Origin: a virus | Length of the DNA stretch: 64,000 nt | Direction: 5' to 3' (one strand) | Virus record (IMG/VR): IMGVR_UViG_3300045988_099661 | Location: 1,698-65,697 of that record | Part shown: positions 7,812 through 46,210 of the stretch, in pieces | How positions within the stretch are numbered: position 1 is the first letter of the stretch | How the letters are laid out: every line of letters begins with the position of its first letter | Notes under the pieces: model-generated | Databases searched by the model: none | What the model was told of the DNA's origin: nothing | The model's input: the letters and a program-made list of their open reading frames with translations, nothing else | Translations under genes and position numbers: made by a program

Positions 7812-7857
7812 AGCGGTTCACCTCACTTTCGTGTGATTCCTAGCAATAGCTATCGCC

Positions 7858-8124: not shown

Positions 8125-8173
8125 TTTCCATTCCTCCTTTTTACCACTCCAATTTCGGCAGTTCCGCCTTTTA

Positions 8174-12983: not shown

Positions 12984-15155
12984 TTACGATAGGCTATAAT
13001 CGGTGCTGCCGTTTTCTATAGCAACGAAAGCAGCAACGCCTGTCGATATTGCAAACGAACCGGAATTGTATGACGCAGAAATCAATATTACCTCATCTGA
13101 TTCTAATGTTACACTGGTCGGGTTGTTAGAACTATAGCTGCGCCTTTTATATGATGCCAAGACGATTCGTAATGTAACCTTAGTTTCGTAATCTACTGCG
13201 CTTGGCAACACAAAACGAAGATTTTGCCTCGTTTTCAGTTTTTCACTATAATTATCTCCTGATGTTTGCGGCAACGGTGTATATTCACTTTCTGCAATAA
13301 CATTCTCTTGATATATAATTTGCATTTTGTAAGCCCTTGCGGTTTTAGAGTAAGTTGTTTGGTGGGAACCAACGTGTCTGCTACCAGCAGCGAGTGAGGT
13401 TAATTCTGCGGCAATCACTCCTTCTGTAGCCGATTTCGGCACAGGCAATTCTTTGTCAAAATACGCTTCGATATTGTATTTGTCTATCGTTTTAATATTT
13501 TCGGTAGTAGTACCCACGTAATCTTCGTTGTACGGAATGGTCGTGCTCGAACCTTCGCCAAGTCGAGTGTAACACTCTACGCTAAAGCCGTTAACCGTAA
13601 CATTTGTCGCTCTGCAAATTATAAATACGTTGCTTTGCGCATAATTTGCTTCGTTGCACTGCAATTCTGTTGGAACACATACAACGCTTGGCGTATTCTT
13701 CCAAGGCGCGGCAAATGTCACTTTTTGGCCGTGGGCTGCAGTGCCGACACAAATTCTATGTAGCTGAGCGTATTGGTTATCATTTGCGTCATAAAACGTA
13801 ATGCCCCGTTCGTCAAACAAAGTGTAACCTCCGCTCGATTCACTACATCTCAATCCTTCTTGGCTGAGCCTTACTGCACCACCAACGACCGCTAAAGCTC
13901 CTGCAAGTTCCATATCTCCGGCATACAATTTGTCTACCGTTACAGCTCCGGCACTAATCTTATCACCGATAACACTTCCTGCCTGTATAGCATCAGAAGT
14001 TACACTGTCAGCGGCAAGTTTCTCGGCAGTTATAGCTCCTGCTTCAATTTTGTCAGCAGTCACTGCTCCTGCTCCGATTTTGGTAGACGTGATAGCGTTA
14101 GCCTGTATCTTTGCAGCAGTAACCGCATTATCCGCGATATTGTCAGCGTCAACCATTAAGGTTTTAACATCAGCCTGTGCTGTATCGCTCCATTCGCCGT
14201 CGCTTATATCGTCAACAAAGCAATAGCTTACAGTAATAGTTCCGCTAAAGAAGAAATATATGAACTCGCCGTTTTCAGTAGTATAGTAATCATCTTCGCC
14301 GTCAGAAGTAACGATATGAAGTTTATAATGAGTGTATCCTAGCGGCAATCCAGCCATTTTAATATTCACGCCATCAAGCGTAGCAGTCAGTATTGGTGCG
14401 GCAGGTTTCCCACCTATGGCCTTATTAAACTGATGTACCGCAGGCTCGCTATACTCGCCAAAGATGTTACGGACATAAAGATAAGCTGTGCCTGCGCGAA
14501 TGCCGGGGTTAGCTCTGCTCCACGTTTCACGTGTGCTGTCTAACCTTTTATCATTCCAAACGCCGGGGTTCTGGTCTAACCTAAGCTCAAAAAAATCCAC
14601 ATAGTTGTTATCCTCGAACAGCCATTTCCAAAGTGGGCCTTGCTCATCCCACGTCAGCACGAACTGTGTTGGTGGAGCAGGGATATATTGACTGCCTTTG
14701 ATTGTTATGTTGGCCATAGGAGCAGTGTCGAAGTCTGCTGCAACGCCTTTTGAATTCACTGCTATAACGCGAATATAGTACATTGCGCCAGCCGTCGCAC
14801 CTTGCATTACGTACTGCGTGCCATTCGCCTCGCCAGCCTTTTCCCATGAGCTGCCAGCGGCACGCGTATACCACACCTCGGCTTTAGCGTAATCGTTGAC
14901 GGGCGTCATGTCCCAGTTAATTTGAATGTTATTACTGCGCACTCCGTCAGTGATAGCGTGCAGCTCCAGCAATGTGATATTGGTTACGTGGTTTGGCTTC
15001 TTCGTCAGCTCTTCAAGTGCGCTGTCTATCTTCTCATCAGTAACTAATCCGTACTTCGCGAGATAATTTTTCAGCGCTGCAACGAAAGTTTTGCCGTCGC
15101 CGGAGACGGAATTGGGGATGTTGCGCAGTATGTTTTTAATATCTTCCGCATTCAC
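12984..15155 (-). CDS. Tail protein/host-specificity-type protein with an FN3-like domain and AVTxxKI repeats, 723 aa
   Basis: The segment IQINWDMTPVNDYAKAEVWYTRAAGSSWEKAGEANGTQYVMQGATAGAMYYIRVIAVN is FN3-like. The repeat run is AVTAAKIQANAITSTKIGAGAVTADKIEAGAITAEKLAADSVTSDAIQAGSV. Confidence 0.65.
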   Translation of the reverse strand: MNAEDIKNILRNIPNSVSGDGKTFVAALKNYLAKYGLVTDEKIDSALEELTKKPNHVTNITLLELHAITDGVRSNNIQINWDMTPVNDYAKAEVWYTRAAGSSWEKAGEANGTQYVMQGATAGAMYYIRVIAVNSKGVAADFDTAPMANITIKGSQYIPAPPTQFVLTWDEQGPLWKWLFEDNNYVDFFELRLDQNPGVWNDKRLDSTRETWSRANPGIRAGTAYLYVRNIFGEYSEPAVHQFNKAIGGKPAAPILTATLDGVNIKMAGLPLGYTHYKLHIVTSDGEDDYYTTENGEFIYFFFSGTITVSYCFVDDISDGEWSDTAQADVKTLMVDADNIADNAVTAAKIQANAITSTKIGAGAVTADKIEAGAITAEKLAADSVTSDAIQAGSVIGDKISAGAVTVDKLYAGDMELAGALAVVGGAVRLSQEGLRCSESSGGYTLFDERGITFYDANDNQYAQLHRICVGTAAHGQKVTFAAPWKNTPSVVCVPTELQCNEANYAQSNVFIICRATNVTVNGFSVECYTRLGEGSSTTIPYNEDYVGTTTENIKTIDKYNIEAYFDKELPVPKSATEGVIAAELTSLAAGSRHVGSHQTTYSKTARAYKMQIIYQENVIAESEYTPLPQTSGDNYSEKLKTRQNLRFVLPSAVDYETKVTLRIVLASYKRRSYSSNNPTSVTLESDEVILISASYNSGSFAISTGVAAFVAIENGSTDYSLS

Positions 15156-16596: not shown

Positions 16597-16670
16597 TGGA
16601 GCTGGGTACGAGACTCGAACTCGTATGAGACGCTTACAAAGCGACCATGTTGCCATTACATCAGCCCAGC
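16597..16670 (-). tRNA. tRNA-Thr (anticodon UGU), 74 nt with encoded CCA
   Basis: The reverse complement is GCTGGGCTGATGTAATGGCAACATGGTCGCTTTGTAAGCGTCTCATACGAGTTCGAGTCTCGTACCCAGCTCCA. It folds as a cloverleaf: T arm ACGAG/TTCGAGT/CTCGT and anticodon loop TTTGTAA. There is one U-U mismatch in the anticodon stem and a C7-A66 mismatch. Confidence 0.75.
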
Positions 16671-16676
16671 ATATTA

Positions 16677-16752
16677 TGGAGCTGACAGCAGGAATCGAAC
16701 CTGCAACCTTAGCTTTACGAAAGCTCTGCACTGCCTGTTGTGCTATGCCAGC
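16677..16752 (-). tRNA. tRNA-Thr (anticodon CGU), 76 nt with encoded CCA
   Basis: The reverse complement is GCTGGCATAGCACAACAGGCAGTGCAGAGCTTTCGTAAAGCTAAGGTTGCAGGTTCGATTCCTGCTGTCAGCTCCA. The acceptor stem is 7 bp, the T arm is GCAGG/TTCGATT/CCTGC and the anticodon loop is TTCGTAA. Confidence 0.85.
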
Positions 16753-22463: not shown

Positions 22464-23810
22464 TCACATCTTGCCATATTTACGCGTCAAACCAAGCTTC
22501 TTAGCACGCATAAAGGCATTTCGTCTCGTATTATTAACAGGAAAAGCAAAGGTCAGACACAATGCGTCCGCCAAGTCGGGTGAATAGCCTGTCTTATCCT
22601 TGATGCTCTCCTTCGATTCAAGCTTGATACGGTTTAAGCCGTCAAAACTGTACTCCGGCATCGAAAGCTCCTGTCTCAGCTCCGGCATGTACGGCAAATC
22701 GCCGCCCTGTTCGAGCCATTGTCGGCAGCTATCCCACATCTCTGCACGCTTATTGACGTAGCGAGTGTCTAGGATAGCCTTGCCGCCAAACGGAACCTCA
22801 ATGACCTGCTTATAGCCTAATTGCCGCAGGCGGTCAATAACACCTTCGCCACGGCCTGCATCAATGAACACAACGTCTGGCATCCAGTCGTCAATCTCTT
22901 GCGCTAACATACCGGCAAAAGTCATGTTGTCGACCTCTTTTCTTGTCTTTGGCTCCCAGACCTTTAGTCCCTGTCTGCGTATCATTACACTGCGGTCATC
23001 ACCGAAACGCGCAACGTCCACGCCCAGAATCTTCGGCAAGTCTTTATACTCAGCCTCAGACAGCTCCCTGCTCATTGCCTCGTTGATGGAATCGAGAGAA
23101 ATAAGCTTGTTGGAAGCATTTGCAGCAAAGTCGCAGTAAAGCTCTTGTCGAATCTCGGCAGGAGTCATCTCACGCTTCATCTCTTCCAGCTCTTCCGCCG
23201 GAATGATGCCAGTCTGGTCAACATCATACAAGCATGTGAACCAAGAATTATTCTTCTTCGCCTTCAAGTAAATGTCGTAGAACTGGTTCTGGCCTTTAGG
23301 AGTACCAATAAAAACAGCCCATCCACGACGGTCTGACAAGGCAGGTCTGATAACCTCACCCCACAGCTCCTTACGTATCTGGGCATATTCATCTATTACT
23401 ACACCGTCCCAGTACGTACCACGAAGGCCGTCTGGACGGTCAGCACCGATAATGTAAATTCTTGCGCCACGCACATTCGGGTGAAAGCTCGGCAGCTCTA
23501 CATAAAGCTCACTCTCGTTAATCTTGCGTCCCGGTATCGCCGCAGTATATCGCTTGAGATAATCCCACGCAATCATCTTGGCCTGCTTCAAGAACGGAGC
23601 AAGATAAGCATAGTTAGGAGCTTCGTATTTCGTCATGGTGACAGCTTTCTTGACGATGTGATTAATGCTGCCAACCGACTTGCCAAAACGTCTGTGAGCA
23701 ACGATTACAGAGAACCTGTACTGTTCTAGAGCTGGATGCAGTATATCTCTCCAGAATGGTCTTGGCACATAGTCTATCTCGATTACATTACTCGCTATTG
23801 CCATTGTCAT
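22464..23810 (-). CDS. terL: Terminase large subunit
   Basis: Walker A-like AHRRFGKS and Walker B VVIDEYAQ. Nuclease motifs GVDVARFGDD, FIDAGRGEG and SPDLADAL. Confidence 0.95.
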   Translation of the reverse strand: MTMAIASNVIEIDYVPRPFWRDILHPALEQYRFSVIVAHRRFGKSVGSINHIVKKAVTMTKYEAPNYAYLAPFLKQAKMIAWDYLKRYTAAIPGRKINESELYVELPSFHPNVRGARIYIIGADRPDGLRGTYWDGVVIDEYAQIRKELWGEVIRPALSDRRGWAVFIGTPKGQNQFYDIYLKAKKNNSWFTCLYDVDQTGIIPAEELEEMKREMTPAEIRQELYCDFAANASNKLISLDSINEAMSRELSEAEYKDLPKILGVDVARFGDDRSVMIRRQGLKVWEPKTRKEVDNMTFAGMLAQEIDDWMPDVVFIDAGRGEGVIDRLRQLGYKQVIEVPFGGKAILDTRYVNKRAEMWDSCRQWLEQGGDLPYMPELRQELSMPEYSFDGLNRIKLESKESIKDKTGYSPDLADALCLTFAFPVNNTRRNAFMRAKKLGLTRKYGKM

Positions 23811-24369
23811 CCTCCTCTACGAAGGAGAAACCAGCAGGCATCTCAATCTTATAACCGCTAGGCTGCGCAGCAGGCTCTTCCACGACCTCAGCAGGCTTCT
23901 CAGCAAGCTCTTTTGGCAGCTCGCTCTCCGTTGCGCTCGTGTTGATGGTATCACCCTTCCACGCAAACGCAATCGGCATACCGTTGTCGGCCGTGAGCTG
24001 CTTAGTACTCTTTTCCTCCCAGCCAGCATTGTTCTTCAAAGACAAAGCAATACCGGCAGGAGCTTTGGAATAAACCAGCTTGCCCTCAAGATAATCCTCA
24101 AGTCTTAAGCATCCGTCTGCTACGACAGCGCCGAAAGCTTCATCACGCTTATCAGCATACTCCAGCATCTGTCTACGCGTCTGGAACCCCAGATACCTTG
24201 CAAGACCGCTATATGTCGGCACCTTGAACTCCTTGATTTTCTCATTCCCGTCTCGGTCATAAGTGATTCTCAAGCAGTAATCAAAATACTCATCAATCTT
24301 TCGTTTCATGCTGTCCGGAGTGGGATATAACGCCGTTACATGCCCTCCAGCACAAAAAATATCACTCAT
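23788..24369 (-). CDS. terS: Terminase small subunit
   Basis: Contains PTYSGLARYLGFQTRRQMLEY, an HTH typical of small terminases. It overlaps the terL start by 23 nt. Confidence 0.75.
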   Translation of the reverse strand: MSDIFCAGGHVTALYPTPDSMKRKIDEYFDYCLRITYDRDGNEKIKEFKVPTYSGLARYLGFQTRRQMLEYADKRDEAFGAVVADGCLRLEDYLEGKLVYSKAPAGIALSLKNNAGWEEKSTKQLTADNGMPIAFAWKGDTINTSATESELPKELAEKPAEVVEEPAAQPSGYKIEMPAGFSFVEEDDNGNSE

Positions 24370-24466
24370 AGGCTTCCTCCTCCCTCCGTGTATAAATTAA
24401 AAGCCCTACGCCTAGCATACGGAGGTTGATATGCTAACCCTGACGGCATAGAGCTTTTAAAGCAAT

Positions 24467-24494
24467 AAAAAAGCACTGCAATTTCTTACAGTGC
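24467..24494 (-). terminator. Intrinsic terminator-like hairpin about 100 nt upstream of terS (possible antitermination target)
   Basis: On the minus strand GCACTG-N10-CAGTGC is followed by TTTTTT. A second minus-strand-specific hairpin at 24405-24458 needs G-U pairs that exist only in the minus-strand RNA. Confidence 0.55.
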
Positions 24495-24525
24495 AAAATA
24501 AACTTGTGTATGACCACCTCTAAGT

Positions 24526-24824
24526 CTAGGTACTTAAAAATTAGGGGTACCCGGTATAGGGGGGTATGTTTTATAGGGTAAATAGTTAGTGTGGTGTGTA
24601 GTATTGTTAATGCACTAGCACCTTGATATATATATCTAAGCTTTATTTTTAAGCTGACTAGATATAGGGTGTTGGATAAAGGCGACTCTAGGCTAGGTAC
24701 TTACACCAGGCAGGGTGGGGTATGGGTATACCCCTAAAATATAGGGTAAAATCTACGTCCGATAATACATCTTATGTTAAATTATGCCCTATTACCCTTG
24801 TTTTAGAGGGTATAACACCCTATA
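24526..24824. repeat. Cluster of TATAGGGT(A) boxes, a GGGTATACCC palindrome and CTAGGTACTTA direct repeats
   Basis: TATAGGG(T) boxes start at 24555, 24572, 24663 and 24740, with an inverted copy at 24816-24824. The palindrome is at 24724-24733. CTAGGTACTTA occurs at 24526 and 24693. No ORF >=60 aa lies in this stretch. Confidence 0.6.
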
Positions 24825-25024
24825 AAGCTATAAGAATATACCATTATAGCTATGATTGATATACCTATTAGCCTTTACTCAATCAACATTACCATAATCT
24901 ACATTACTCATATCGTTGCTTACATAATAATGATGTAAGCAACTTCTAACCATTACCATTTATAATGATACGGTTCTTTAAAGCCCTGCTTATCACTGTT
25001 ACCATTATACCACAACTTTGCACC

Positions 25025-25054
25025 TGCTTATCGTGCGGATAAGCAAAATTTTTT
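25025..25054 (+). terminator. Plus-strand terminator-like hairpin inside the ORF-free region
   Basis: TGCTTATC-GTGCG-GATAAGCA is followed by AAATTTTTT. A second TGCTTATC copy lies at 24986. Confidence 0.4.
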
Positions 25055-25098
25055 CGTTTTTCGTAGCTATCCGAAAAAATACAAATGTTGGAATATTC

Positions 25099-25106
25099 TG
25101 TATAAT
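25099..25106 (+). promoter_or_regulatory. Candidate extended -10 (TGTATAAT) for the plus-strand island
   Basis: TG lies immediately 5' of TATAAT. No good -35 is present. Confidence 0.3.
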
Positions 25107-25121
25107 ATAGTCAAGGAACCG

Positions 25122-25190
25122 CCCCGAATCCTAGAAAGGGCGAATCCCCGAAATTCCCCGAACCCTAGGACGGGAATTTCCGAACCCCAA
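25122..25190 (+). repeat. CCCCGAA / CCGAA short direct repeats in the island leader
   Basis: CCCCGAA occurs at 25122, 25146 and 25156. A TCCGAACCCC variant is at 25179-25188, and CCTAG(A/G)A elements are interspersed. Confidence 0.5.
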
Positions 25191-25606
25191 AAGAACCTTA
25201 AAAATTACATAGCAGGGCAAATTGAGTGCCTGAAAACTCAATCAGCTTTTTAGCACGCTTACCGTGTTAAGAGCCAGAGATGTACCGCACTACCTGGTTA
25301 ACGCTTGCAATTGCGTGAGTGGCGCCGGGATAGGGACAGAAGCGAGTACCTGCCGTAATGACGGCACGACGGATAGTATTTCGGAAATAGGGTAAATCCT
25401 ATTCCGCCTAGCAGGGAAAGTCACGTAGTTGAAATCATCAAGGGAGAAGGGTACGTTGACGGAAATCAATATTGTAGTGTGCCGTGATAAAAGCTGACAT
25501 GCAAATACATTTTCCACCACCTTTTGGAATGGGTGGGGAACAAAACGCTTGCCTACTGGCTTGTTTACGCAAGTTTATAGGCTGGCAGGCAGGCACGACG
25601 TTCCCT

Positions 25607-25625
25607 CCACCTTTAAACGCCCGAC
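25607..25625. repeat. Left arm of a perfect 19-bp inverted repeat (CCACCTTTAAACGCCCGAC)
   Basis: Exact reverse complement of 25918-25936. It contains an anti-SD CCACCTTT. Confidence 0.9.
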
Positions 25626-25651
25626 TTCATTATTTGAAGTAGGTGATTTTA

Positions 25652-25911
25652 TGAAAAGATGGACACAAGCTGACGAATACAAGTGGCGCTGCGAGCAGGC
25701 AGATTTGAGAAAAGGCGAAACTAAACGCCTGGACTCTAAAAAAGGCTATTACCGTGCCGAAAAGGGAAAAGCGGTAAAGCCCAAAGAGGAAAGCAAAGGC
25801 GTTGTACTTATCCGCAAGTACTATCGTTCCTCCATAACTACAGAATTTTCGCCTAGCGAAAAGACTGGCACGCTAACAGATAGAGAGTTCTTTAAAGCTC
25901 TCTACGCATAA
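25652..25911 (+). CDS. Small basic hypothetical protein, 86 aa
   Basis: The ATG at 25652 has AGGTGA 6 nt upstream. The track's longer version starts at a TTG inside the structured leader. Confidence 0.55.
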
Positions 25912-25917
25912 CAATTT

Positions 25918-25936
25918 GTCGGGCGTTTAAAGGTGG
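25918..25936. repeat. Right arm of the 19-bp inverted repeat (GTCGGGCGTTTAAAGGTGG)
   Basis: Exact reverse complement of 25607-25625. It contains the island's SD motif AAAGGTGG. Confidence 0.9.
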
Positions 25937-25971
25937 ATATACCCCAATGTTAAGAAAAGGCAGGTAGCAAA

Positions 25972-26199
25972 ATGGTAAAGAAAAGGTTGAAATTGAAGAG
26001 CGGGCTGGTGCTGGAAACACACTTGCACGGCTCCGCCGTGACACACGCTTACTTCATCGGTAGCAAACAACTTACACGCTTTGAACAAATAAGCGTGGTA
26101 AAGTTAGCAGAAAAGCACCGCTTACCAATCGCGCAATTCGCGCACTATGTCGGCTTTGACTTATCAAGTCGAAGCGTCTGCGCCAAATTGCTAATTTGA
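25972..26199 (+). CDS. Hypothetical protein, 75 aa
   Basis: ORF followed by a cassette-type stem-loop. Confidence 0.5.
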   Translation: MVKKRLKLKSGLVLETHLHGSAVTHAYFIGSKQLTRFEQISVVKLAEKHRLPIAQFAHYVGFDLSSRSVCAKLLI

Positions 26200-26288
26200 G
26201 CGCCTACGCAAGACGCCACCCGTTGACGTCTTGCCATGGTAGCTTAACAAAGTTGCCTAAAATTTTCAAAAAAAGGTGGTAAATGATT

Positions 26289-26426
26289 ATGGGAATTAAA
26301 AGCAAGCGTTACCGTGACGCAAAAATACAGGCGTTATGGGAACGCAACGTGAAGCAAGATGAAGATTGCATGGAAATCTTAACCATGCTTGCGCTTCTTG
26401 CCGTTCTCTTCATGGCGACGTTTTGA
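26289..26426 (+). CDS. Small hydrophobic-tailed peptide, 45 aa (not in the track)
   Basis: A conserved leader AAAGGTGGTAAATGATTATG precedes it. The C-terminus is LTMLALLAVLFMATF, and a stem-loop follows the stop. Confidence 0.4.
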   Translation: MGIKSKRYRDAKIQALWERNVKQDEDCMEILTMLALLAVLFMATF

Positions 26427-26558
26427 CGCTATGGCAAGCGTCCGACACAGTTCGGGCGTTTGTAGAGTGTGTCAAAAGACTACTCTACCGCTGTAAATGG
26501 TAGTATACGGCGGTATTACCCAACTATCAACCGACTAATCAAAAGGTGGAATTGTACT

Positions 26559-27998
26559 ATGGATATGGAAAATGCTAAAGATGTTGAACGCGAATGCGCT
26601 GAAAAGATGGTAAACACAGTATTTTGTGAAGTTTGCGGTAGTCTTATCCCCGTGAGCGAAGCTGTTGAAACATGCGACCATTACCACGTATGTCAAGATT
26701 GCGTTGAACGTGAATACGTTGAATGCAATTGCTGCGGTGAGCTGATTCCCCGTGACGACGCAAAAGAAGGCGCTGATGGTGAAATCTATTGCGAGAGCTG
26801 CTTCGACAACGACTTCTTCGTTTGCCCTCATTGTGGCAAAGTTGAATATATCGACGACGCCATCGCAGTATATGACGACGCTGACATGGATAGAGCTGAC
26901 TTTGCACTGTGGTGCAAGGAGTGCGCCACAGAAGACGCACACCGTTGCGACGACTGCGAGCGCTATTTCTGCTACAGACAAGACGTAAACGAGGATGACG
27001 CAGGGCATTGCCTCTGCGATACATGCTTCGATGAAGGGAATTACCGCCGCTGTGAAGACTGTAATGAAATCCTCTCAGAGGATGACCAATACTACAGCGA
27101 TATTGACGACTGCTGCTATTGCGAGCACTGCCTCCCAAAAGACGGCGGGGACGTCATCCACAACTACCACAGCGGTATTCGCCCGTTGAACTGGCATGGT
27201 GGTATCGGCAATATTCGCGACCGCCGTGACCATCTCTTCATGGGCTGGGAACTGGAAATTGACCGTGACGACTGGAGCAAGCAGACGGCATACGATGCAG
27301 AGTGCATTGTCAACGCCGCAGGTTACGACGTGGACGAATCCATCGTCTGCGAACAGGACGGTAGTTTGAACCACGGTTTCGAGCTTATCAGCTCTACCGC
27401 AACACTTGACTATCATCTGAACCATTACGGTATCGACGATTTGATGAAAGAGGCCGTTGAGCTGGGTTACACCAGCCACGACGCAGGAACTTGCGGCTTG
27501 CATGTACATGTTGACCGCACGTATTTCCTTGACGCTTTCGAGAACCCCGAAAACAATGCCTGCATTATCCTTGTGAACAATGCAGGCTGGCTTAAAAAAT
27601 TCAGCCGCCGTACCAATTACGAGTATTGCAAATTCCCGCAGGGCATTGAACCATTCCATCCGGAAGAGTTCAAACCTAATGTCCCGGACGTACTGGACAA
27701 AATCCCTGAGCGCGACGCTATGGAAGTGTTAGAGGATATGCGGCATACATACCGCAATCACTACCACGCGCTGAACTTCAGAGGTGGCTCTACTATCGAA
27801 TTCCGCTTCAATCGTGGTACGTTAAGCCCCGAAACTTTCAAGGCAACATTGCAACTTATCCAAATGTATGCTGATGCTATCAAGCACAGCCGTTTGGACA
27901 CAGCTTGCAAGATTAGCTTGAAATGGTTCTGTCGCGTAGCGAAACAACGCGGTTATACCGAGTTTCTCAGTTATCTGAAGCGTCACAACATCCAGTAA
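26559..27998 (+). CDS. Amidoligase-family (carboxylate-amine ligase-like) protein with an N-terminal array of five zinc-ribbon units, 479 aa
   Basis: C-terminal motif blocks: FMGWELEIDRDD, CEQDGSLNHGFELISS, GTCGLHVHVDR, GGSTIEFRFNRGTL. The N-terminal part has five CxxC-N(8-25)-CxxC units. The start is moved to the ATG at 26559, which sits behind the conserved leader AAAAGGTGGAATTGTACTATG. Confidence 0.65.
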   Translation: MDMENAKDVERECAEKMVNTVFCEVCGSLIPVSEAVETCDHYHVCQDCVEREYVECNCCGELIPRDDAKEGADGEIYCESCFDNDFFVCPHCGKVEYIDDAIAVYDDADMDRADFALWCKECATEDAHRCDDCERYFCYRQDVNEDDAGHCLCDTCFDEGNYRRCEDCNEILSEDDQYYSDIDDCCYCEHCLPKDGGDVIHNYHSGIRPLNWHGGIGNIRDRRDHLFMGWELEIDRDDWSKQTAYDAECIVNAAGYDVDESIVCEQDGSLNHGFELISSTATLDYHLNHYGIDDLMKEAVELGYTSHDAGTCGLHVHVDRTYFLDAFENPENNACIILVNNAGWLKKFSRRTNYEYCKFPQGIEPFHPEEFKPNVPDVLDKIPERDAMEVLEDMRHTYRNHYHALNFRGGSTIEFRFNRGTLSPETFKATLQLIQMYADAIKHSRLDTACKISLKWFCRVAKQRGYTEFLSYLKRHNIQ

Positions 27999-28090
27999 TT
28001 TAAGCGCAAACGCAGGGCATCACTTCGGTGGTGTCTTGCAGGGGTAGCTTAAAACTCCCAAATATTTCAAAAAAGGTGGAATGTATATGT
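27999..28090 (+). repeat. 92-bp cassette junction element, copy A (perfect repeat of 28985-29076)
   Basis: The sequence is TTTAAGCGCAAACGCAGGGCATCACTTCGGTGGTGTCTTGCAGGGGTAGCTTAAAACTCCCAAATATTTCAAAAAAGGTGGAATGTATATGT. It comprises a TTCG-tetraloop hairpin, a GGTAGCTTAA element, the SD and a double ATG. Confidence 0.95.
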
Positions 28091-28989
28091 GTATTATTGC
28101 GTACGCTAAACAAGGAATCGAAATCGAGGAGCATGTTATTCGCACAATGTTCGAGGGCAACCCCGACGGTGCGGGCATCATGTGGAAGCCGTTTGGCAGC
28201 ACAAACGTCGAAATTCGTAAGGGTTTCATGGATGTGGAAAGCTTACTGAAAGCCTGGAGAAAAATTCCCGTTGAATGTGAGAAGGCAATACACTGCCGTA
28301 TCGCGACTTCTGGCAAAATCTCAAAAGGCTGCTGCCATCCATTCCCCGTCCGTCCTAAAACAGACATGATGAAGAAGGCCGTTGATAAGTGCTACATGGC
28401 ATTGATGCATAACGGTGTTATTCGTCAGTGCACGCCTAAAAATGGCCTGAAGGCTATTTGCAGCGACACTATGGTGTTTGCGGCAAAATACCTCTATCCG
28501 TTGCAAAAGCAGATTGACAAAGAGTGCGTACAAGACTTGTTAGAGACTTTCGCCGCGTCTCGTCTGCTGATTATGCGCGCAAACGCTCCGACAATTATGT
28601 TAGGCGATTGGGTAGAAGACAAAGGAGTCTACTACTCCAACACGTCCTACAAAGATTGGGGTTACGGCTATTACCGCTGGCCTAAAAGCTGTCGCACGAG
28701 TCCTTCTGTAAGCTGGATTGCACTTGATATAGGCGATGACGAACCCCAAAAAGCCGCTGCCAGCGTTAAAGAGGCATTAGAGTGCAACAATATCCTTTTC
28801 GATATGGTAGACGACGGCGTAAGTGGTGAAGTGAGCTTTGAAGCCTACGATTTTCCTTATAGCACAACGAAGGTAGCAGGCTATAACATCATCGACCGCA
28901 TCGACGACGAGCAAGACGGTTACGACGACTTCGGGTATGAAGGATACGATGAAGGCGGCTATCTGCCTGTACGCTACCAAAAAGTTTAA
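28087..28989 (+). CDS. Class-II glutamine amidotransferase-like / Ntn Cys-nucleophile hydrolase, about 300 aa
   Basis: From the second ATG the protein starts MCIIAY, a Met-Cys nucleophile arrangement. Further blocks are NPDGAGIMW, HCRIATSGKISKGCCHPF and LMHNGVI. The C-terminal part is acidic and Tyr-rich. Confidence 0.75.
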   Translation: MCIIAYAKQGIEIEEHVIRTMFEGNPDGAGIMWKPFGSTNVEIRKGFMDVESLLKAWRKIPVECEKAIHCRIATSGKISKGCCHPFPVRPKTDMMKKAVDKCYMALMHNGVIRQCTPKNGLKAICSDTMVFAAKYLYPLQKQIDKECVQDLLETFAASRLLIMRANAPTIMLGDWVEDKGVYYSNTSYKDWGYGYYRWPKSCRTSPSVSWIALDIGDDEPQKAAASVKEALECNNILFDMVDDGVSGEVSFEAYDFPYSTTKVAGYNIIDRIDDEQDGYDDFGYEGYDEGGYLPVRYQKV

Positions 28990-29076
28990 GCGCAAACGCA
29001 GGGCATCACTTCGGTGGTGTCTTGCAGGGGTAGCTTAAAACTCCCAAATATTTCAAAAAAGGTGGAATGTATATGT
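28985..29076 (+). repeat. 92-bp cassette junction element, copy B
   Basis: Identical to 27999-28090 by direct comparison of the printed sequence. Confidence 0.95.
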
Positions 29077-29612
29077 CAAAAGAATGGTTAAAAGAATTCA
29101 GTGTATTGGTGAAAGCGCCGGGGCGCTATCATTGCACCAGGTGCGTTGTTAAAAGGCAAAAAGCTCCGACGCTTGAAAAAGCACAAGAGCTTGTAGCGAA
29201 CTACGGTGCATATCACCGTAAAAAGCGCGGCCTTGTCAGTGAGGAAGCCTTTTCGGTAATCAAGAACCCTGTAAAGTTTCGTGTAACCTATACATTCAGT
29301 TGGCCAGATGTCAACGCCACCCGAGAGAAAAGGCATGCTCTCACTGCTGTTCTTGAAGCAGCGAAATCACTTGTCGTTGTTGACCAGTGCTACGCTGGCA
29401 CTGACGTTTGCGACACCGATATATGTATATATCGCATCAATATCACCGGCGACGCTTGCATGAGGAGTTTTATCGAAAATCAACTACGCTTTTCCCAAAA
29501 AGAGAACGCTATCATCGACTACTGTATACAAGTAGAGCCGTATCTGGGTGACGATATTTGTAACCATTACATGATATTCAAAACTTTCAACGACAAGTTC
29601 TTCGTTGGTTAA
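29067..29612 (+). CDS. Hypothetical protein, 181 aa
   Basis: ORF behind a conserved leader. No motif recognised. Confidence 0.6.
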   Translation: MYMSKEWLKEFSVLVKAPGRYHCTRCVVKRQKAPTLEKAQELVANYGAYHRKKRGLVSEEAFSVIKNPVKFRVTYTFSWPDVNATREKRHALTAVLEAAKSLVVVDQCYAGTDVCDTDICIYRINITGDACMRSFIENQLRFSQKENAIIDYCIQVEPYLGDDICNHYMIFKTFNDKFFVG

Positions 29613-29702
29613 GTGCAAACCCAGCGTCCTACGCAGAGCTTAGGGCGTTGGAGGGGTAGCTTAACAACTCCCGAAAATATTTTTAAAAGGTGGTAATGTA
29701 TT

Positions 29703-30029
29703 ATGGATTTTAAACTAGTTAATTTGTGTGACCACGACGTAGTGATTAGAGACTGCAACAACAAATTTCACACGCTGCCAGCCTGCGAAGGTGAGCCAGC
29801 GCGAGTAAAAACCGACTATGCTCCAGTGTTTTATCTTGGGACAGTCGGTGTGAACCGCAAGGTGGGCAGTATAACCACATCCTTACCGCCAACCACGGAA
29901 GGCGTAATGTACGTAGTGAGCCGCATGGTAGCAGAAGCCAATAGGCATCGCAGAGACCTGCTGTTTCCAGGCGCCCAGTTCTACTCAGATGAAGGCGTTC
30001 GTTTCTGTGCAGGTTTAGAGATTCTGTAA
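29703..30029 (+). CDS. Hypothetical protein, 108 aa
   Basis: ORF behind a conserved leader. The N-terminus is MDFKLVNLCDHDVVI. Confidence 0.6.
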   Translation: MDFKLVNLCDHDVVIRDCNNKFHTLPACEGEPARVKTDYAPVFYLGTVGVNRKVGSITTSLPPTTEGVMYVVSRMVAEANRHRRDLLFPGAQFYSDEGVRFCAGLEIL

Positions 30030-30046
30030 GTACGGAGGAGTAAATT

Positions 30047-30301
30047 ATGCGTTCTCAAATAATCGAGCATCACTTTAGGCAAGTCATGAGCGAGTGTTAT
30101 AACCCTTGCAAGCCATCAGAGCCGATTTTAGAGCGAGAAGGCAGATACGTCGACCTCGCACGGCTTGATAACGGCAAAGGTTATCGGCTATATCACGGAA
30201 TTGTCGAAAAGAATATTTACGACTACGTTGACTATGCTGACGAAGCAGAAGCTCGCAACGACATGGACATGCTCATAAAAGCGTATCTGCAAAACAATTA
30301 G
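30047..30301 (+). CDS. Hypothetical protein, 84 aa
   Basis: ORF with GGAGGAG upstream. It is the only island gene coupled to its neighbour without the junction element. Confidence 0.55.
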   Translation: MRSQIIEHHFRQVMSECYNPCKPSEPILEREGRYVDLARLDNGKGYRLYHGIVEKNIYDYVDYADEAEARNDMDMLIKAYLQNN

Positions 30302-30394
30302 TTCAGTCTATTTGCAGGGCATCGGCAACTTGTCGGTGTCTTGCAGGAGTGATTGAACACTCAAACTTAATTTTTTTGAAAGGTGGTAATTGTA

Positions 30395-31012
30395 TTGGGT
30401 AACAGAGCTGTGATTTTAAACAAAAAGGATATGCTCGCAGACGGGAGAATCAACCCGAATCAAATTGGAGTGTACCTCCATTGGAACGGAGGCAGAACTT
30501 GCATTGAGGCTTTCTTGAAGTATTGCGAGTTGAAGCAGTACCGTACCCCGGATACCGACTGCTATGGATGGGCAAGGCTTTGCCAAGTTATCGGCAACTT
30601 CTTCGGCGGCGGCTTGAGTCTCGGCATCGACTGCGCAATGAATCTCGATTGCGCAAACTACGACAACGGCACTTATGTTATCGAAAATTGGGAAATTGTT
30701 GGCCGTTTGCATTTGGAGCATAGTGAATGCTACGCTGATTATAGCGTCAATGATATGCTCAAGGAAATCGACAAAAGAATGCCCGAAAGCGAGCGTCTAG
30801 GCGAAGGTTTTTTTGACGCAGAAGAAGTTGCTGCCGAAGAGCTGCAAGTTGGCGACACAGTTTTCGTGTTTGACACTGACAGCCATTGTTATAGTCCTCG
30901 CGTCGTGAATATTACTCCCGACAAGGTTTACTTTGATGGCGCCATGTCTGGCAGTATAGACCTCAAGCGAGGCCTCATGCCACAAATGGTTCGTCGCCTG
31001 CCAAAGAGCTAA
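30395..31012 (+). CDS. Hypothetical protein, about 205 aa
   Basis: The track's GTG start at 30383 lies inside the SD. The TTG at 30395 sits where the ATG sits in the other leaders. No motif recognised. Confidence 0.55.
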   Translation: MGNRAVILNKKDMLADGRINPNQIGVYLHWNGGRTCIEAFLKYCELKQYRTPDTDCYGWARLCQVIGNFFGGGLSLGIDCAMNLDCANYDNGTYVIENWEIVGRLHLEHSECYADYSVNDMLKEIDKRMPESERLGEGFFDAEEVAAEELQVGDTVFVFDTDSHCYSPRVVNITPDKVYFDGAMSGSIDLKRGLMPQMVRRLPKS

Positions 31013-31104
31013 TTTAATCTATTCACAGCCTGCGAGCTTCGGCTCGTCGGTTGTGGCAGTGATAAAATAAAACAATCATTGATATTATATATGAAAGGTG
31101 GTAA

Positions 31105-31290
31105 ATGATTATGAAAAACAAGAACAACAAGCGCTTCGGTCAGCTCATGAAGCTCATGCGCATGGTTAACCACGGAATTTTCGTCTACCCTACTGAACCC
31201 CAACAAGCACTCTACAACAGGCTGCACAAGATTTTATTGTTCGGCGTATACGGTATTACTGACCGCAAAATGGCAAAGGAGCGTGGATAA
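31105..31290 (+). CDS. Small basic hypothetical protein, 59-61 aa
   Basis: The conserved leader AAAGGTGGTAAATGATTATG precedes it. Confidence 0.5.
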   Translation: MIMKNKNNKRFGQLMKLMRMVNHGIFVYPTEPQQALYNRLHKILLFGVYGITDRKMAKERG

Positions 31291-31334
31291 TGCCAATTTA
31301 GGCAAGGTTAATGTTTATGTATGTCAATAACGAA

Positions 31335-31365
31335 AGCCCCGTGATTAATTTCACGGGGCTTTTTG
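31335..31365 (+). terminator. Intrinsic terminator closing the cassette array
   Basis: AGCCCCGTGA-TTAATT-TCACGGGGCT followed by TTTT. Confidence 0.8.
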
Positions 31366-31406
31366 CGTTTCCGAGTATTATTTTTTCATTTTTTATGATT
31401 TTTTAG

Positions 31407-31435
31407 TTGACATTTTGATATTGATATGGTATTAT
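31407..31435 (+). promoter_or_regulatory. Sigma-70-type promoter for 31488-31889
   Basis: TTGACA (31407-31412), a 17-nt spacer, then TATTAT (31430-31435). Confidence 0.6.
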
Positions 31436-31487
31436 TTTATCAGTTAAATGGTACATATTAGTACTCAGTAAAAAGGAGGAATTTTAT

Positions 31488-31889
31488 ATGAACAACACAG
31501 AAAAAAACACTCGATTAGGCGGTTTCAGAGAAGGTGCTGGACGCAAGAAGGAACTACCAAACGGTGCAAAGGTTACATCTTTTAAACTCACTGACGCTGA
31601 GCGTATCGCAGTAAAGAAGTTCATTGCCGAACTCCGTGGTGGCAACAACTCCAAAATGAAAGAAGCAGAAAAAGAGAAAAGTGCTTTTGAAATTATGCAG
31701 AGAGCAACCGAACCTTTAGCCATTGAACTGCGCAGAATCATCGACCTGTACGGCGGTCGTGGCAAAGGCTTTCGTAAAGCAGAAGAGATTGCAAAAGTGA
31801 TTGCTGTCGCCGCACCGAAAGACGCTATCCAATCATGGGAGAACGACAATCCACGTCAATACGACAAAAACGGTAAAGAGATTCGCTGA
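31488..31889 (+). CDS. Hypothetical protein with an N-terminal GGFREGAGRKK motif, 133 aa
   Basis: ORF with AAAGGAGG upstream. It has its own promoter and terminator. Confidence 0.6.
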   Translation: MNNTEKNTRLGGFREGAGRKKELPNGAKVTSFKLTDAERIAVKKFIAELRGGNNSKMKEAEKEKSAFEIMQRATEPLAIELRRIIDLYGGRGKGFRKAEEIAKVIAVAAPKDAIQSWENDNPRQYDKNGKEIR

Positions 31890-31896
31890 TACAAAA

Positions 31897-31921
31897 AGCC
31901 ACCCTTTCGGGTGGCTTTTTT
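31897..31921 (+). terminator. Intrinsic terminator
   Basis: AGCCACCC-TTTC-GGGTGGCT followed by TTTTT. Confidence 0.85.
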
Positions 31922-31956
31922 CACTCTCAATCTCAACAAAACAACGAACAGAAAAC

Positions 31957-32029
31957 AAGGCAGGATGAATGTGCAAAAACATTTAAAGGTGGTAAATGTA
32001 TTATGAAGTTCAATGCCTGCCTTGCCGGT
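31957..32029 (+). promoter_or_regulatory. Orphan copy of the island leader followed by only an 11-codon ORF (cassette remnant)
   Basis: TTTAAAGGTGGTAAATGTATTATG is followed by AAGTTCAATGCCTGCCTTGCCGGTTTATTATAG. A 9-bp inverted repeat CAAGGCAGG/CCTGCCTTG flanks the SD. Confidence 0.5.
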
Positions 32030-32065
32030 TTATTATAGCACAGTTAGACCAGCTACGCAACAGCA

Positions 32066-32104
32066 AAAGCCCTTAGCAAAATATAAATGCTAGGGGCTTT
32101 TTTG
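32066..32104. terminator. Bidirectional terminator between the island and the late-activator gene
   Basis: AAAGCCCTTAGCA...TGCTAGGGGCTTT with an A-run on one side and a T-run on the other. Confidence 0.7.
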
Positions 32105-32108
32105 CTGT

Positions 32109-32702
32109 CTAAAAAACTTTTATTAAGCCAAGCTGAATCGCGCACTCTCTGGCATATCCAATGCCAATATCACGCAGTCGGTAATATTTATCCTCGCTAA
32201 TGGCAAGCTCGGTCTGCGTCCGGCGCATCGGTTCGTTCTCAAAGAACCTGCGGCGTAGTACCTCACTCACCAGCTCGTCCTCGTCATCAGAGAAGAAGAA
32301 TAGCGTCTGCTCTACAACAGCCAGCCACTTCTCGGGCTGTGCTATGACTTCTTCATCGAGCCTCTCAGCGTTAATAATTACCTTTGCTAGTGGTTGGTAG
32401 TGCTTCATTGCAATCGTCGCCGTTGGGTCGGATATGAAGGCGTGAGTGCTACTTCCGCCGCCGGTCTTGCCACCGCTCTGGTAATAACCCTGCTCCTCGC
32501 GACAGGTCTCCACCTCGCGTTTAATGCGGTCGTAGTAGTAAAACATTTTTTCCACCAAGCCAAAGCCTCTCTGCGGCTTGCGAGTCGCACGCCATTTCCT
32601 TCGTGCACTCTGATTCAGAATCTCTGATGATACAGGAAAGTCGACAACAACGCTGTCGGTCTTCGCTTTTTTCTCTTCGCTATCAAGCATTTCTAAGGTC
32701 AT
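32109..32702 (-). CDS. RinA/ArpU-like late-gene transcriptional activator (sigma-region-4-like HTH), 197 aa
   Basis: The pattern STHAFISDPTATIAM...PEKWLAVVEQTL...RRRFFENEPMRRTQTELAISEDKYYRLRDIGIGYARECAIQLGL resembles this family. It is the last gene of the early/middle leftward operon. Confidence 0.55.
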   Translation of the reverse strand: MTLEMLDSEEKKAKTDSVVVDFPVSSEILNQSARRKWRATRKPQRGFGLVEKMFYYYDRIKREVETCREEQGYYQSGGKTGGGSSTHAFISDPTATIAMKHYQPLAKVIINAERLDEEVIAQPEKWLAVVEQTLFFFSDDEDELVSEVLRRRFFENEPMRRTQTELAISEDKYYRLRDIGIGYARECAIQLGLIKVF

Positions 32703-45268: not shown

Positions 45269-46210
45269 TTATTTGCCTTCTACGGCAGCCTCAATTTCAT
45301 CTGCGGTGAACATTGCATCCGCAGGCGTTTCAACCGCTCCTGCGGCTTCCTGCGTGCTCTCGGGGAGCTGTTCTAACGGCGATGCCTCAATAATCGGAGT
45401 GTCTTCGTCGTCGAGTGTACCCTGTGCAATCTGCTCTGCCATTTTTAAGGTGTCGGCAGTAGCAGTACGATAGTCGATAGACATAACGCCCCAGCGGCCA
45501 ATCAGCTCGCGCAGGATAGTTTTGCGTGCCATAGCGTCGAAGTTGCTACTCCAAACCGGGTTCATGTATTTACCTTTGCGGTGCTTCTGTTCGTGTCTTC
45601 TGATTTTAGGCACAGACCAGTAAATGTACTTCTCCATGCCGTTCACGGTGCGGAAGAAGCCGCAGTAACCGATAACCGGTGTTTCCTCGCGAGTATCTTC
45701 GTCCTCGATAAATTCAAGCTCAATATCCTCGGTCAAAGGATTCCAGCGTTTCAGCTCGCCATCGCGAATATCGACAACATTGAGCTTAGTGTAGATGCCG
45801 GTACGCATCGCCATTTGGTACATGCCCTTATAGCCGAGCATGAAGCTCGCTTCCATGCGATACTTGCCATCTTCTTGTTTGTTTTTAAAAGGCACGATGT
45901 AGGCATATCCTAAAGCCGGGTCGACAGGCAAATCGTAGGTTGCCGCTTTCAGACCTGCTTGAATAACGCTCATGGGAGCATTCGTGAAGGCTTCGCGCAT
46001 CTGCGGTGAAGCATTGATAAGACTTACAATGGAGCCTACAAACTGCGGCGCTCTTTTGCCGAGCAGCTCATGAAAACGATTCTTCATACCGCTGCTGTCC
46101 ATCATCTCATTCATGATGGTTGCTAATGATTTGTTAGCAACCTGTTGTTGTGCCTGTACCTGTCCTTCCTGCTGTTTCTTGGCCAGCAGACCGCCTTTTA
46201 CTGTTGCCAT
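45269..46210 (-). CDS. recT: RecT-family single-strand annealing recombinase
   Basis: SVIQAGLKAATYDLPVDPALGYAYIVPFKN...MLGYKGMYQMAMRTG. It is paired with the exonuclease gene upstream. Confidence 0.9.
   Translation of the reverse strand: MATVKGGLLAKKQQEGQVQAQQQVANKSLATIMNEMMDSSGMKNRFHELLGKRAPQFVGSIVSLINASPQMREAFTNAPMSVIQAGLKAATYDLPVDPALGYAYIVPFKNKQEDGKYRMEASFMLGYKGMYQMAMRTGIYTKLNVVDIRDGELKRWNPLTEDIELEFIEDEDTREETPVIGYCGFFRTVNGMEKYIYWSVPKIRRHEQKHRKGKYMNPVWSSNFDAMARKTILRELIGRWGVMSIDYRTATADTLKMAEQIAQGTLDDEDTPIIEASPLEQLPESTQEAAGAVETPADAMFTADEIEAAVEGK

Follow-up and report, generated by a model that had tools for sequence, protein, structure and literature searches.

The 64,000-nt stretch of viral DNA analyzed here (referred to as the window; positions 1,698 to 65,697 of IMG/VR record IMGVR_UViG_3300045988_099661) is for the most part filled by a temperate prophage with genes on the minus strand, and it includes ~10 kb of host DNA. 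Within the prophage, 7.7 kb carrying eleven plus-strand open reading frames (ORFs) separates the small terminase gene (23788-24369, minus strand; GP3_package, PF16677, E 8.5e-13), which forms the left boundary of the region, from the gene of a putative late activator (32109-32702, minus strand; a weak match to phrog_248, "transcriptional activator," E 0.0015), which forms the right one. An initial annotation, made from the sequence, had placed an opposite-strand accessory island between terminase and activator, and this layout is confirmed, the terminase being of the GP3_package type and the activator assignment being putative. The subject of this work is a repeated module of ~100 nt that is present as six full copies (26192-31116), one variant, and one orphan leader, and only in this plus-strand island.

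The leader of the module, AAAGGTGGWA, occurs eight times in the window, always on the plus strand and between 26272 and 31994, compared to 0.3 occurrences expected by chance. A repeat finder recovered the described families, including a 92-nt repeat with 100% identity between its copies at 27999-28090 and 28985-29076. A covariance model built from the junctions (referred to here as R1) gave matches at 26192, 27996, 28982, 29605, 30298, and 31009 (E 3e-14 to 6e-11) and weak matches at 26459, 31432, and 31917; outside the island, in the rest of the prophage and the host DNA, nothing scored better than E=0.68. Across 11 related phage islands, R1 retrieved ~70 distinct copies, and all matches lie on the gene strand and inside islands. 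The conserved composite element that the initial annotation had proposed as a separator of gene cassettes is borne out. An Rfam 15 scan of the window returned two tRNAs only and gave no hit with E <0.1 or near the gathering score across 24300-32150; neither Rfam nor the literature searched holds a match to the module family.

The layout of the module was read from an alignment of 38 junctions, and its geometry was taken from 68 distinct copies. A lower stem, P0 (7-10 bp), forms between TTAAG(Y)GC, located at or just after the stop codon of the upstream gene, and a downstream RCTTAA. P0 encloses an upper stem, P1 (11-15 bp, with an apical loop of 4-6 nt), which is the variable hairpin of the element; the internal loop between them is mostly symmetric, with 1-5 nt per side and sometimes an adjacent 1-nt bulge. 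In 60 of 68 copies, P0 and P1 form a single bipartite hairpin of 19-27 bp (mode 22-24 bp) spanning ~59 nt, and the module hairpins have folding energies of -20 to -44 kcal/mol, which makes them stable. A small hairpin, P2, can arise when the 3' strand of P0 pairs with downstream sequence instead, such that P0 and P2 are mutually exclusive. P2 was found in 38 of 39 copies from the set of close relatives, where it begins 2-4 nt after P1, and in 17 of 19 copies from a second set, compared to 9.9 and 3.8 in shuffled sequences; its arms take 17 different sequences in the larger set and 15 in the smaller. P2 is followed by an A/U-rich unstructured spacer, the invariant Shine-Dalgarno (SD)/leader sequence AAAGGUGGAAUG, and a start codon 8-9 nt past the SD. 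At the other end of the module, the upstream stop codon is close to P0: relative to the first P0 pair, its first base falls at -3 to +2 in 52 of 65 copies, and no copy has it farther than 13 nt upstream. The tract after the module hairpins is A-rich and never a T-run.

This anatomy departs in detail from the four-part arrangement of the initial annotation, which combined two independent hairpins with a double start. What had been described as a GGTAGCTTAA hairpin contains the RCTTAA partner and is mainly the 3' strand of P0; the short hairpin itself is real, as P2, the alternative fold of that same strand. The double start was a misreading: the AATG lies 1-2 nt from the SD in a frame that varies, and the real start codon stands 8-9 nt further on.

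All five versions of the variable hairpin listed in the initial annotation are present, and their pairing is maintained by covariation. Pairing reaches 99.5% in P1 and 83.5% in P0 among the 39 distinct copies that come from the window and close relatives, with compensatory changes at 9 of 10 P1 pairs and 5 of 7 P0 pairs; none of 500 shuffles reached the observed values, and slid controls were 31 to 44% paired. In the plain MAFFT alignment, the P0 strands of the TTAAGTCAC class are shifted by one column, and this lowers the P0 pairing in alignment A3; P0 is upheld by per-sequence folds and by the independent set A5. For 29 copies from distant islands that had not been used to build R1, pairing amounted to 99.7% in P1 and 92.6% in P0, with compensatory changes at 16 of 17 pairs and slid controls at 30 to 42%. 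The number of distinct arm pairs is 50 for P1, falling into 21 sequence clusters, and 44 for P0. Some P1 positions are invariant, namely, an A-U at the third pair and C-G/A-U near the loop, and the flanks of the module resemble GTTAAGY...RCTTAAC. P1 contains 40 G-U pairs but a single A-C pair, which argues that the structure is selected on the sense strand and, most simply, as mRNA.

A presumed sole promoter of the island is marked by a -10 box, TATAAT, at 25101-25106 (plus strand), which is invariant in six loci and lies in a conserved context (ATAATATAG-CAAG); transcription would start after this box. Just upstream, the terminator scan detected a terminator-like hairpin and T-run at 25025-25045 (plus strand) that shows compensatory changes across six loci. 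The same scan found no terminator-like site on the plus strand at any junction, and true intrinsic terminators are present only at 31336-31364 and 31897-31921. The module-bearing stretch (25.1-31.3 kb) has one conserved promoter candidate before it and one terminator after it. Sigma-70-like matches (at least 9 of 12 positions) occur in 4 of 68 modules, compared to 8.4 ± 2.9 in composition-matched shuffles, and the only strong promoter within the island is that of gene A, at 31407. The conserved -10 box, the lack of promoter enrichment at junctions, and the absence of T-runs support a single transcription unit. The weak promoters that had been suggested at each junction from TTGCAG/TTGGAG hexamers are not sustained, as these hexamers are the 3' arm of P1, change with P1, and are not conserved in relatives. 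An identity of the modules as intrinsic terminators was likewise rejected; no U-tract follows their hairpins.

The features of the island are given here in order along the plus strand, on which all of them lie. A structured 5' leader of ~540 nt (25108-25650; fold z = -6.85 for 25108-25975) opens the island transcript; it has no Rfam match and contains blocks that are conserved in relatives. Two tandem hairpins with near-identical GAAUCCUAGAA-type loops (~25120-25175), kept in relatives L007, L008, and L010, could be a protein-binding site. Further on, an anti-leader, UUUUCCACCACCUUUU (25510-25540), is the exact complement of the cassette leader AAAAGGUGG and is locally paired with a decoy leader, GGAAUGGGUGGGGAA. 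The anti-leader is invariant in six close loci and present in L025 and L029; it is absent from L021, L023, and L027, and a universal 5' untranslated region (UTR) anti-leader was rejected on account of these three relatives.

Gene B (25651-25911; 86 aa) is the first core gene in all relatives and is bracketed by a 20-bp long-range helix. The 5' arm of this helix (25606-25625) is the perfect complement of its 3' arm (25918-25937), which holds a leader-type AAAGGTGG and which accounts for what had been taken, at 25918-25948, for a degenerate copy of the module. The helix belongs to the minimum free energy (MFE) fold and is kept by compensatory changes across five loci (CCACC/GGUGG versus CCAGC/GCUGG; AAACG/CGUUU versus AAUCG/CGAUU versus AAGCG/CGCUU), and it is a potential further site of double-stranded RNA processing or SD masking. 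It is followed by core gene I (25972-26199; 75 aa) and by module 1 (26192-26294; R1 78 bits, E 2.6e-13). In this first module, P0 occupies 26196-26204/26238-26247 and P1 26208-26218/26224-26234, P2 pairs 26238-26245 (GGUAGCUU) with 26250-26257 (AAGUUGCC) by coordinates counted from the sequence, and the SD at 26272-26279 precedes the start at 26289, with an in-frame ATG at 26283. Gene C (26283-26426; 45-47 aa) is a core gene encoding a hydrophobic C terminus.

The junction between genes C and D (26427-26558) is the variant. Here the initial annotation had listed a further copy of the element before 26559; the leader is present (26542-26561), and the structure upstream of it is a different one with three hairpins and a CCAC-type stretch for which pairing with the SD is predicted. 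This conserved element of ~110 nt scores 20 bits with R1, and RNAalifold of six loci gave 33 pairs, 9 of which have compensatory changes. In relatives, gene callers put spurious ORFs of 39-47 aa at this junction. Gene D (26559-27998) encodes a protein with a CxxC-rich N-terminal part and an Amidoligase_2-like C-terminal part (PF12224 E 1.8e-4, 21.9 bits against a cutoff of 22 bits; phrog_16683 E 1e-34), with 821 homologues in the protein collection, none of them informatively named. Module 2 (27996-28094; R1 82.7 bits) begins with the stop codon TAA of gene D (27996-27998) and contains P0 at 27999-28007/28044-28053, P1 at 28012-28023/28028-28039 with a UUCG loop, P2 at 28041-28045/28054-28058 (counted from the sequence), an SD at 28072-28079, and a start at 28087. 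The product of gene E (28087-28989) begins with MCII, as do all its homologues, matches phrog_25883 (E 6e-6) and, weakly, the GlmS N-domain, and is probably an Ntn (N-terminal-Cys) glutamine-amidotransferase-like protein. The succession of D and E, amidoligase-like and then Ntn amidotransferase-like, is the conserved core of every island.

Module 3 (28982-29080) is 100% identical to module 2 over 92 nt, with its SD at 29058-29065 and the start at 29073, and is followed by gene F (29073-29612; 179 aa), a member of a variable cassette family. Module 4 (29605-29708; R1 78 bits) has P0 at 29608-29614/29659-29665 with the stop codon TAA inside it, P1 at 29620-29634/29638-29653, an SD at 29686-29693, and a start at 29703. 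The core gene G that follows (29703-30029; 108 aa) matches PADLOC Unk_01 ("sometimes fused to CARF"; E 1.4e-13) and PDB entry 9r7b, Crn4b (E 5.6e-4), and its product is, by sequence, a candidate Crn4-like ring nuclease (Crn4 is described in PMC12830947) directed against cyclic-oligoadenylate signaling defenses. An 84-aa ORF (30047-30301) follows gene G after an ordinary 17-nt GGAGG junction with no module. Module 5 (30298-30400; R1 72 bits), with P0 at 30301-30308/30351-30358, P1 at 30311-30327/30331-30348, and an SD at 30379-30386, leads to the TTG start (30395) of core gene H (30395-31012; 205 aa); PDB sequence searches with proteins D, E, and H gave no match. Module 6 (31009-31116; R1 66.5 bits) has a degenerate P0, P1 at 31023-31037/31042-31056 with a UUCG loop, P2 at 31057-31063/31075-31081, an SD at 31094-31101, and a start at either 31105 or 31111; it precedes a 61-aa ORF (31105-31290), the last cassette of the long transcript.

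The module-bearing transcript ends at the intrinsic terminator at 31336-31364 (GCCCCGUGA...UCACGGGGC and then UUUUU), which has equivalents in relatives. Gene A (31488-31889; 133 aa) is driven separately by the strong sigma-70-type promoter at 31407-31435 (TTGACA-17-TATTAT with TG; 11 of 12 matches) and has its own GGAGG SD and terminator (31897-31921); short paralogues of gene A are module-flanked cassettes in relatives L004 and L005. At the far edge of the island, an orphan leader, AAAGGTGGTAAATGTATTATG (31985-32005), lies inside an 8-bp inverted repeat (31957-31964/32016-32023; AAGGCAGG/CCTGCCTT). This orphan copy had been noted in the initial annotation, and it recurs after the gene A terminator in all close relatives; it may be a distal homology arm of the array.

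For comparison with other phages, the activator protein was used as a query and led, apart from the phage of the window itself, to eight related IMG/VR contigs (70-74% identity). Among these contigs, L009 duplicates L008, L003 is truncated one leader into the island, and L006 stops before it; in the five relatives analyzed in full, an island with 8-11 leader copies is present at the equivalent site and in the equivalent orientation. Protein H as a query yielded two further viral contigs and one genome record, a metagenome-assembled genome (MAG) titled uncultured Phascolarctobacterium sp. The title of this one MAG is the sole basis on which the host, a gut bacterium, is presumed to be Phascolarctobacterium, a Negativicute. 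Homologues of protein D (37-71% identity) are encoded in same-position islands of five further contigs, which also encode an SU10-type capsid and portal. There, the GP3_package terminase flanks the island on one side, and the other flank holds RusA in the four contigs that extend past the island and SSB as well in three of them. A D homologue with 30% identity lies in a different context and is without modules. The most distant island examined, that of L027 (3177-16910; 13 kb, 29 genes, 37% identity in D), has the hairpin at only four junctions, and a GGAGG leader replaces GGUGG at least before gene D; because L027 pairs the hairpin with a GGAGG leader, the hairpin part of the module seems to predate the specific leader sequence. 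The island had no BLASTN match in the cultured-phage or plasmid collections, TBLASTN of protein D gave only remote homologues (≤28% identity) in six phage-collection records, four of which are cultured phages, and a search of viral contigs for exact occurrences of the GGTAGCTTAA motif retrieved the same phage only. The contig of a near-identical phage (L001; IMGVR_UViG_3300045988_118546) breaks off exactly within the 92-nt duplicated module. Since assemblies break at module repeats, the island content recovered from short reads may be underreported or misjoined.

Across the related islands, the core genes keep the order B, I, C, D, E, ..., G, ..., H, and then A, and the islands differ by insertion, deletion, or replacement of individual ORFs between these genes (F, M, O, P, L, a second F, short A paralogues, and singletons). 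Every breakpoint of a cassette indel or replacement in five pairwise comparisons falls between a stop codon and approximately position +8 of the next ORF, with breakpoints spread over the module and no single fixed position. An identical hairpin and leader can precede unrelated ORFs, such that E is followed by F or by O depending on the island, and P1 variants form a mosaic across positions and genomes. The proposal that junctions are breakpoints of gene content thus agrees with the comparison, which places the changes inside modules. The suggested resemblance to the shuffling cassettes of T4-type phages stands insofar as content changes are bounded by junctions; the module works like those cassettes in this respect but has no promoter and no T-run. 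RecT (45269-46210, minus strand; PF03837 E 1e-30) and a YqaJ exonuclease (46212-47213, minus strand; PF09588 E 2e-39) are the phage's own short-homology recombination system and may take part in the exchange; judging from recombineering, they would be able to recombine homologies of module length.

Two individual loci among the relatives bear on the cassettes. In L023, two complete tandem modules with no ORF between them (13012-13246) resemble an "empty slot," as expected if an ORF is lost by recombination between its flanking modules. In L010 (reverse complement, 7633-8142), a 169-aa ORF (LGGFRDLSGKTFGRLTVL...) stands directly behind the TTG start of the gene H leader, reusing the first two codons, and gene H restarts with a 4-nt overlap; by eye only, the N terminus of this ORF is homing-endonuclease-like. 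It is plausible that the island holds counter-defense genes, as at least one core cassette resembles a Crn4-type ring nuclease and several cassettes have the look of such genes.

We tentatively favor an interpretation of the module as mRNA punctuation, in which P0 and P1 together serve as a site of RNase III-type processing or of stabilization, with a standard leader attached, and we consider this somewhat short of an even chance. A double-strand-specific RNase III-type endoribonuclease would recognize P0 and P1, or the hairpin would at least block exonucleases, and the long transcript would be split into cistron-sized units. If the internal loop were cut on its 3' side, the upstream mRNA would keep P1 as a cap at its 3' end, and the downstream mRNA would begin 0-4 nt before P2, which would serve as a 5' stabilizer, and would run into a strong, unstructured ribosome-binding site (RBS). 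With P1 and P2 left as end hairpins by such a cut, one model would cover all three helices, and expression of any ORF with a module on either side would not depend on the neighboring ORFs. The bipartite hairpin of about two helical turns with an internal loop is the layout of the RNase III sites of phages T7 and SP82, and the 5' stabilizers of Bacillus subtilis require a hairpin near the 5' end, as P2, within 4 nt of it, would be. At the DNA level, ~90 nt of homology would flank each ORF, allowing homologous recombination to swap ORF-sized cassettes, probably helped by RecT/YqaJ.

Several points weigh against this interpretation. Cleavage, along with its enzyme and position, is a prediction, and the RNase III of the presumed host, a Negativicute, may have a specificity of its own. 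A processing site needs no stop-codon anchoring, yet 52 of 65 copies are anchored at -3 to +2, and anchoring this strict points to some interplay with terminating ribosomes. The invariance of the leader exceeds what an SD needs and, together with the anti-leader in the 5' UTR, hints at additional translational control. Not every junction conforms: that at 30030-30046 works without a module, and the one before gene D has another structure. With respect to the covariation, common descent of the copies and gene conversion between them inflate the counts, which, given homogenization within genomes (seen in the identity of modules 2 and 3 in the window and in four near-identical P1 stems of L023), overstate the number of independent events. 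Finally, alignments A3 and A5 were fitted to the model structure and are biased toward pairing.

The anchoring at stop codons favors the main rival, a termination-sensing coupling switch that resembles an erm attenuator and needs no cleavage. Here, P0 (segments 1:2) would compete with P2 (segments 2:3): a terminating ribosome would melt P0, the SD-like segment 2 (GGAG/GGGG/GGUG) would capture the C-rich segment 3, and segment 3 would no longer mask the SD, such that cistron n+1 would be translated only during translation of cistron n. The stop codon lies at -3 to +2 of the first P0 pair in most copies and always inside the ~13-nt reach of a ribosome, P0 and P2 share a strand and are each upheld by many sequences, and segment 3 is C-rich (ACC, CCC, CAC, or CCAC) and pairs with GGUGG in some MFE folds; the gene D junction and the gene B helix are further places where the SD is predicted to be sequestered. 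The expected response, however, is faint: in partition-function modeling, masking of the ribosome footprint raises SD accessibility slightly, from a mean of 0.38 to 0.49, and many junctions are unchanged or shift in the opposite direction. Moreover, the 3:4 pairing comprises only 3-5 bp across a loop of 12-20 nt and, as the SD is invariant, lies beyond the reach of covariation. We regard the switch as somewhat unlikely on balance; it is compatible with the processing model, and the other four rivals are less likely. A broader possibility, which we consider rather unlikely, is that the module is a stop-codon-anchored three-helix riboregulator (P0/P1 versus P2) at each cistron, through which upstream translation would set the fate of the next cistron by way of translation, cleavage, or both, and in which the 5'-UTR anti-leader could gate all of the identical leaders. 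If true, the island would be an RNA-programmed, integron-like array in which captured ORFs are automatically wired into a hierarchical counter-defense expression chain.

In the remaining rivals, the module would be read as a passive element, as an operator, or as DNA. As a passive stabilizer or insulator, for which the REP hairpins of the malEFG operon are a precedent, an uncut hairpin would block 3'-to-5' exonucleases and shield the next RBS from upstream coding sequence. Hairpins of -20 to -44 kcal/mol directly after each ORF and the unstructured A/U-rich spacer ahead of the SD agree with this, but the bipartite geometry and its length, P2, and the semiconserved internal-loop and P1 positions are left unexplained, making this quite unlikely. 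We give a low probability to an island-wide operator, where the hairpin/leader would be bound by a protein (e.g., B, I, or C, which are small, basic, and part of the core) or would pair with the CCACCUUU anti-leader of the 5' UTR, for joint repression or activation of the cassettes. Such an operator would explain why the leader AAAGGUGGAAUG is invariant past the needs of an SD, why an anti-leader and decoy are conserved in the 5' UTR, why some P1 positions are invariant, and why small core genes open every island; however, L021, L023, and L027 carry modules without an anti-leader, L027 has GGAGG leaders with the same hairpin type, and domain searches of B, I, and C revealed none for RNA binding. 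Co-oriented, promoterless ORFs separated by structured repeats in which pairing is conserved over sequence, with GTTAAGY...RCTTAAC-like flanks at which cassettes vary, would also be expected of a DNA recombination site, that is, a single-stranded DNA hairpin for a site-specific recombinase (attC-like) or a miniature mobile element (REP/Correia-like). This is very unlikely: there is no integron integrase (with a TIGR02249 cutoff of 265, the sole tyrosine recombinase reaches 31 bits), the ~40 window proteins scanned (those of the island plus ~30 other phage ORFs of at least 100 aa) yielded no HUH or transposase domain, the core-like motifs are reversed relative to attC R''/R', breakpoints are scattered over the module, and no copies exist outside islands, including in the ~10 kb of host DNA. 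The excess of G-U over A-C pairs (40 to 1) and the stop-codon anchoring also fit RNA better. True promoter-terminator cassettes of the PeSL type, in which transcription would stop and start anew at each junction, share a similar layout (stem-loop, AT-rich tract, SD, and start) and likewise occur at indel breakpoints (PMC4122927). They are scarcely credible here, as promoter-like matches fall below the shuffled expectation (4 of 68 versus 8.4 ± 2.9), the proposed -35 box is the P1 3' arm, and no T-run follows the module hairpins.

Among known systems, the module is akin to the RNase III sites of T7 (R0.3-R18.5) and of SP82 in being a set of repeated, mutually related intercistronic hairpins in the transcripts of one phage, each with lower and upper stems that are separated by an internal loop and add up to about two helical turns, and each located between a stop codon and the next RBS. 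Once the T7 and SP82 sites have been processed, the upstream message carries a hairpin at its 3' end. Of 68 copies of the module, for which we infer cleavage by analogy, 60 show the intercistronic hairpin of about two turns with an internal loop. The module adds the covarying alternative 5' hairpin P2, the invariant leader, and strict stop-codon anchoring, and it is confined to a temperate-phage accessory island, where it marks the boundaries of cassette exchange. The SP82 sites are those in the early mRNA of this Bacillus phage (Panganiban and Whiteley 1983, as cited in PMC4838370).

The PeSL and PmSL elements of T4-type phages are repeats of a stem-loop, an AT-rich tract, and an SD plus start between small accessory ORFs of a hyperplastic region; the defining parts of a PeSL are an early promoter of the sigma-70 type and a stem-loop of the terminator type, indels and replacements between related phages coincide with the copies, and homologous recombination from copy to copy has been proposed (PMC2839356, PMC4122927). 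Like PeSLs, the module has an SD and start at its 3' end and sits at indel and replacement breakpoints of a plastic region; unlike them, it has neither promoter nor T-run, consists of a covarying bipartite hairpin of ~60 nt, and belongs to a temperate phage. In Cluster K mycobacteriophages, the 13-bp SAS (GGGATAGGAGCCC) lies 3-8 bp upstream of start codons, and the ESAS, a sequence-conserved 17-bp imperfect inverted repeat with a 4-13-bp spacer, lies upstream of the SAS; a role in translation is suspected (PMC3203893). The module shares with these an SD-containing asymmetric motif near the starts of a subset of genes, in one orientation and often with an inverted repeat upstream. However, its motif, AAAGGTGGAAUG, is unrelated in sequence to GGGATAGGAGCCC, its arms vary freely with pairing alone kept (50 P1 and 44 P0 arm pairs), its hairpin reaches back to the upstream stop codon, and its copies are clustered in one island.

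Integron attC arrays resemble the island in having co-oriented, promoterless ORFs behind one upstream promoter and palindromes with a conserved one-strand structure. An attC identity was rejected; there is no IntI, and the order (G)TTAAGY...RCTTAA(C) reverses that of R'' (RYYYAAC)/R' (GTTRRRY). The attC-like folding of single-stranded DNA would likewise be one-stranded, and the strand-specific pairing seen here (40 G-U pairs versus 1 A-C) is more simply explained by RNA. The Correia elements of Neisseria (PMC2649163) and REP/BIME elements are, like the module, intergenic palindromic repeats; their transcribed hairpins are bound or cleaved by RNase III or stabilize upstream mRNA. Correia and REP/BIME elements are scattered genome-wide and can carry promoters, in contrast to the module, which is restricted to islands and to the coding strand and has a fixed leader; an identity as a dispersed repeat of these kinds was rejected, given that R1 matches occur in islands only and that no match was found in phage or plasmid collections. 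We conclude that the module is an RNA motif family new to Rfam and the searched literature, that it works like T7/SP82 sites and PeSLs, and that its layout resembles that of SAS/ESAS elements.

As mRNA punctuation, the module would give each ORF a standard, insulated junction, a natural counterpart of the engineered RiboJ, Csy4, and RNase III insulators. If the islands hold counter-defense genes, as is probable, "any ORF between two modules" may serve as a handle for mining uncultured gut phages for new anti-defense genes. The arrangement also offers a model for gene-sized exchange in temperate phages by means of short regulatory repeats and a phage RecT, extending the PeSL idea beyond T4-like phages.

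The remainder of the prophage encodes CI- and Cro-type regulators (50.2-51.9 kb), an antirepressor, a tyrosine integrase (52366-53508, at 52.4 kb and 20 kb from the island), a replisome organizer, RusA, SSB, and the large terminase. Two tRNA-Thr genes (anticodons UGU and CGU) lie inside its late-gene region (16597-16752, minus strand). A 0.7-kb noncoding stretch upstream of the small terminase gene contains conserved direct repeats, AAGTCTAGGTACTTA, at 24522-24536 and 24689-24703, and a conserved block, GTCCGATAATATATCTTATGTTAAAT, at 24770-24795; the repeats and the block are candidates for late-promoter/activator sites or a pac region.

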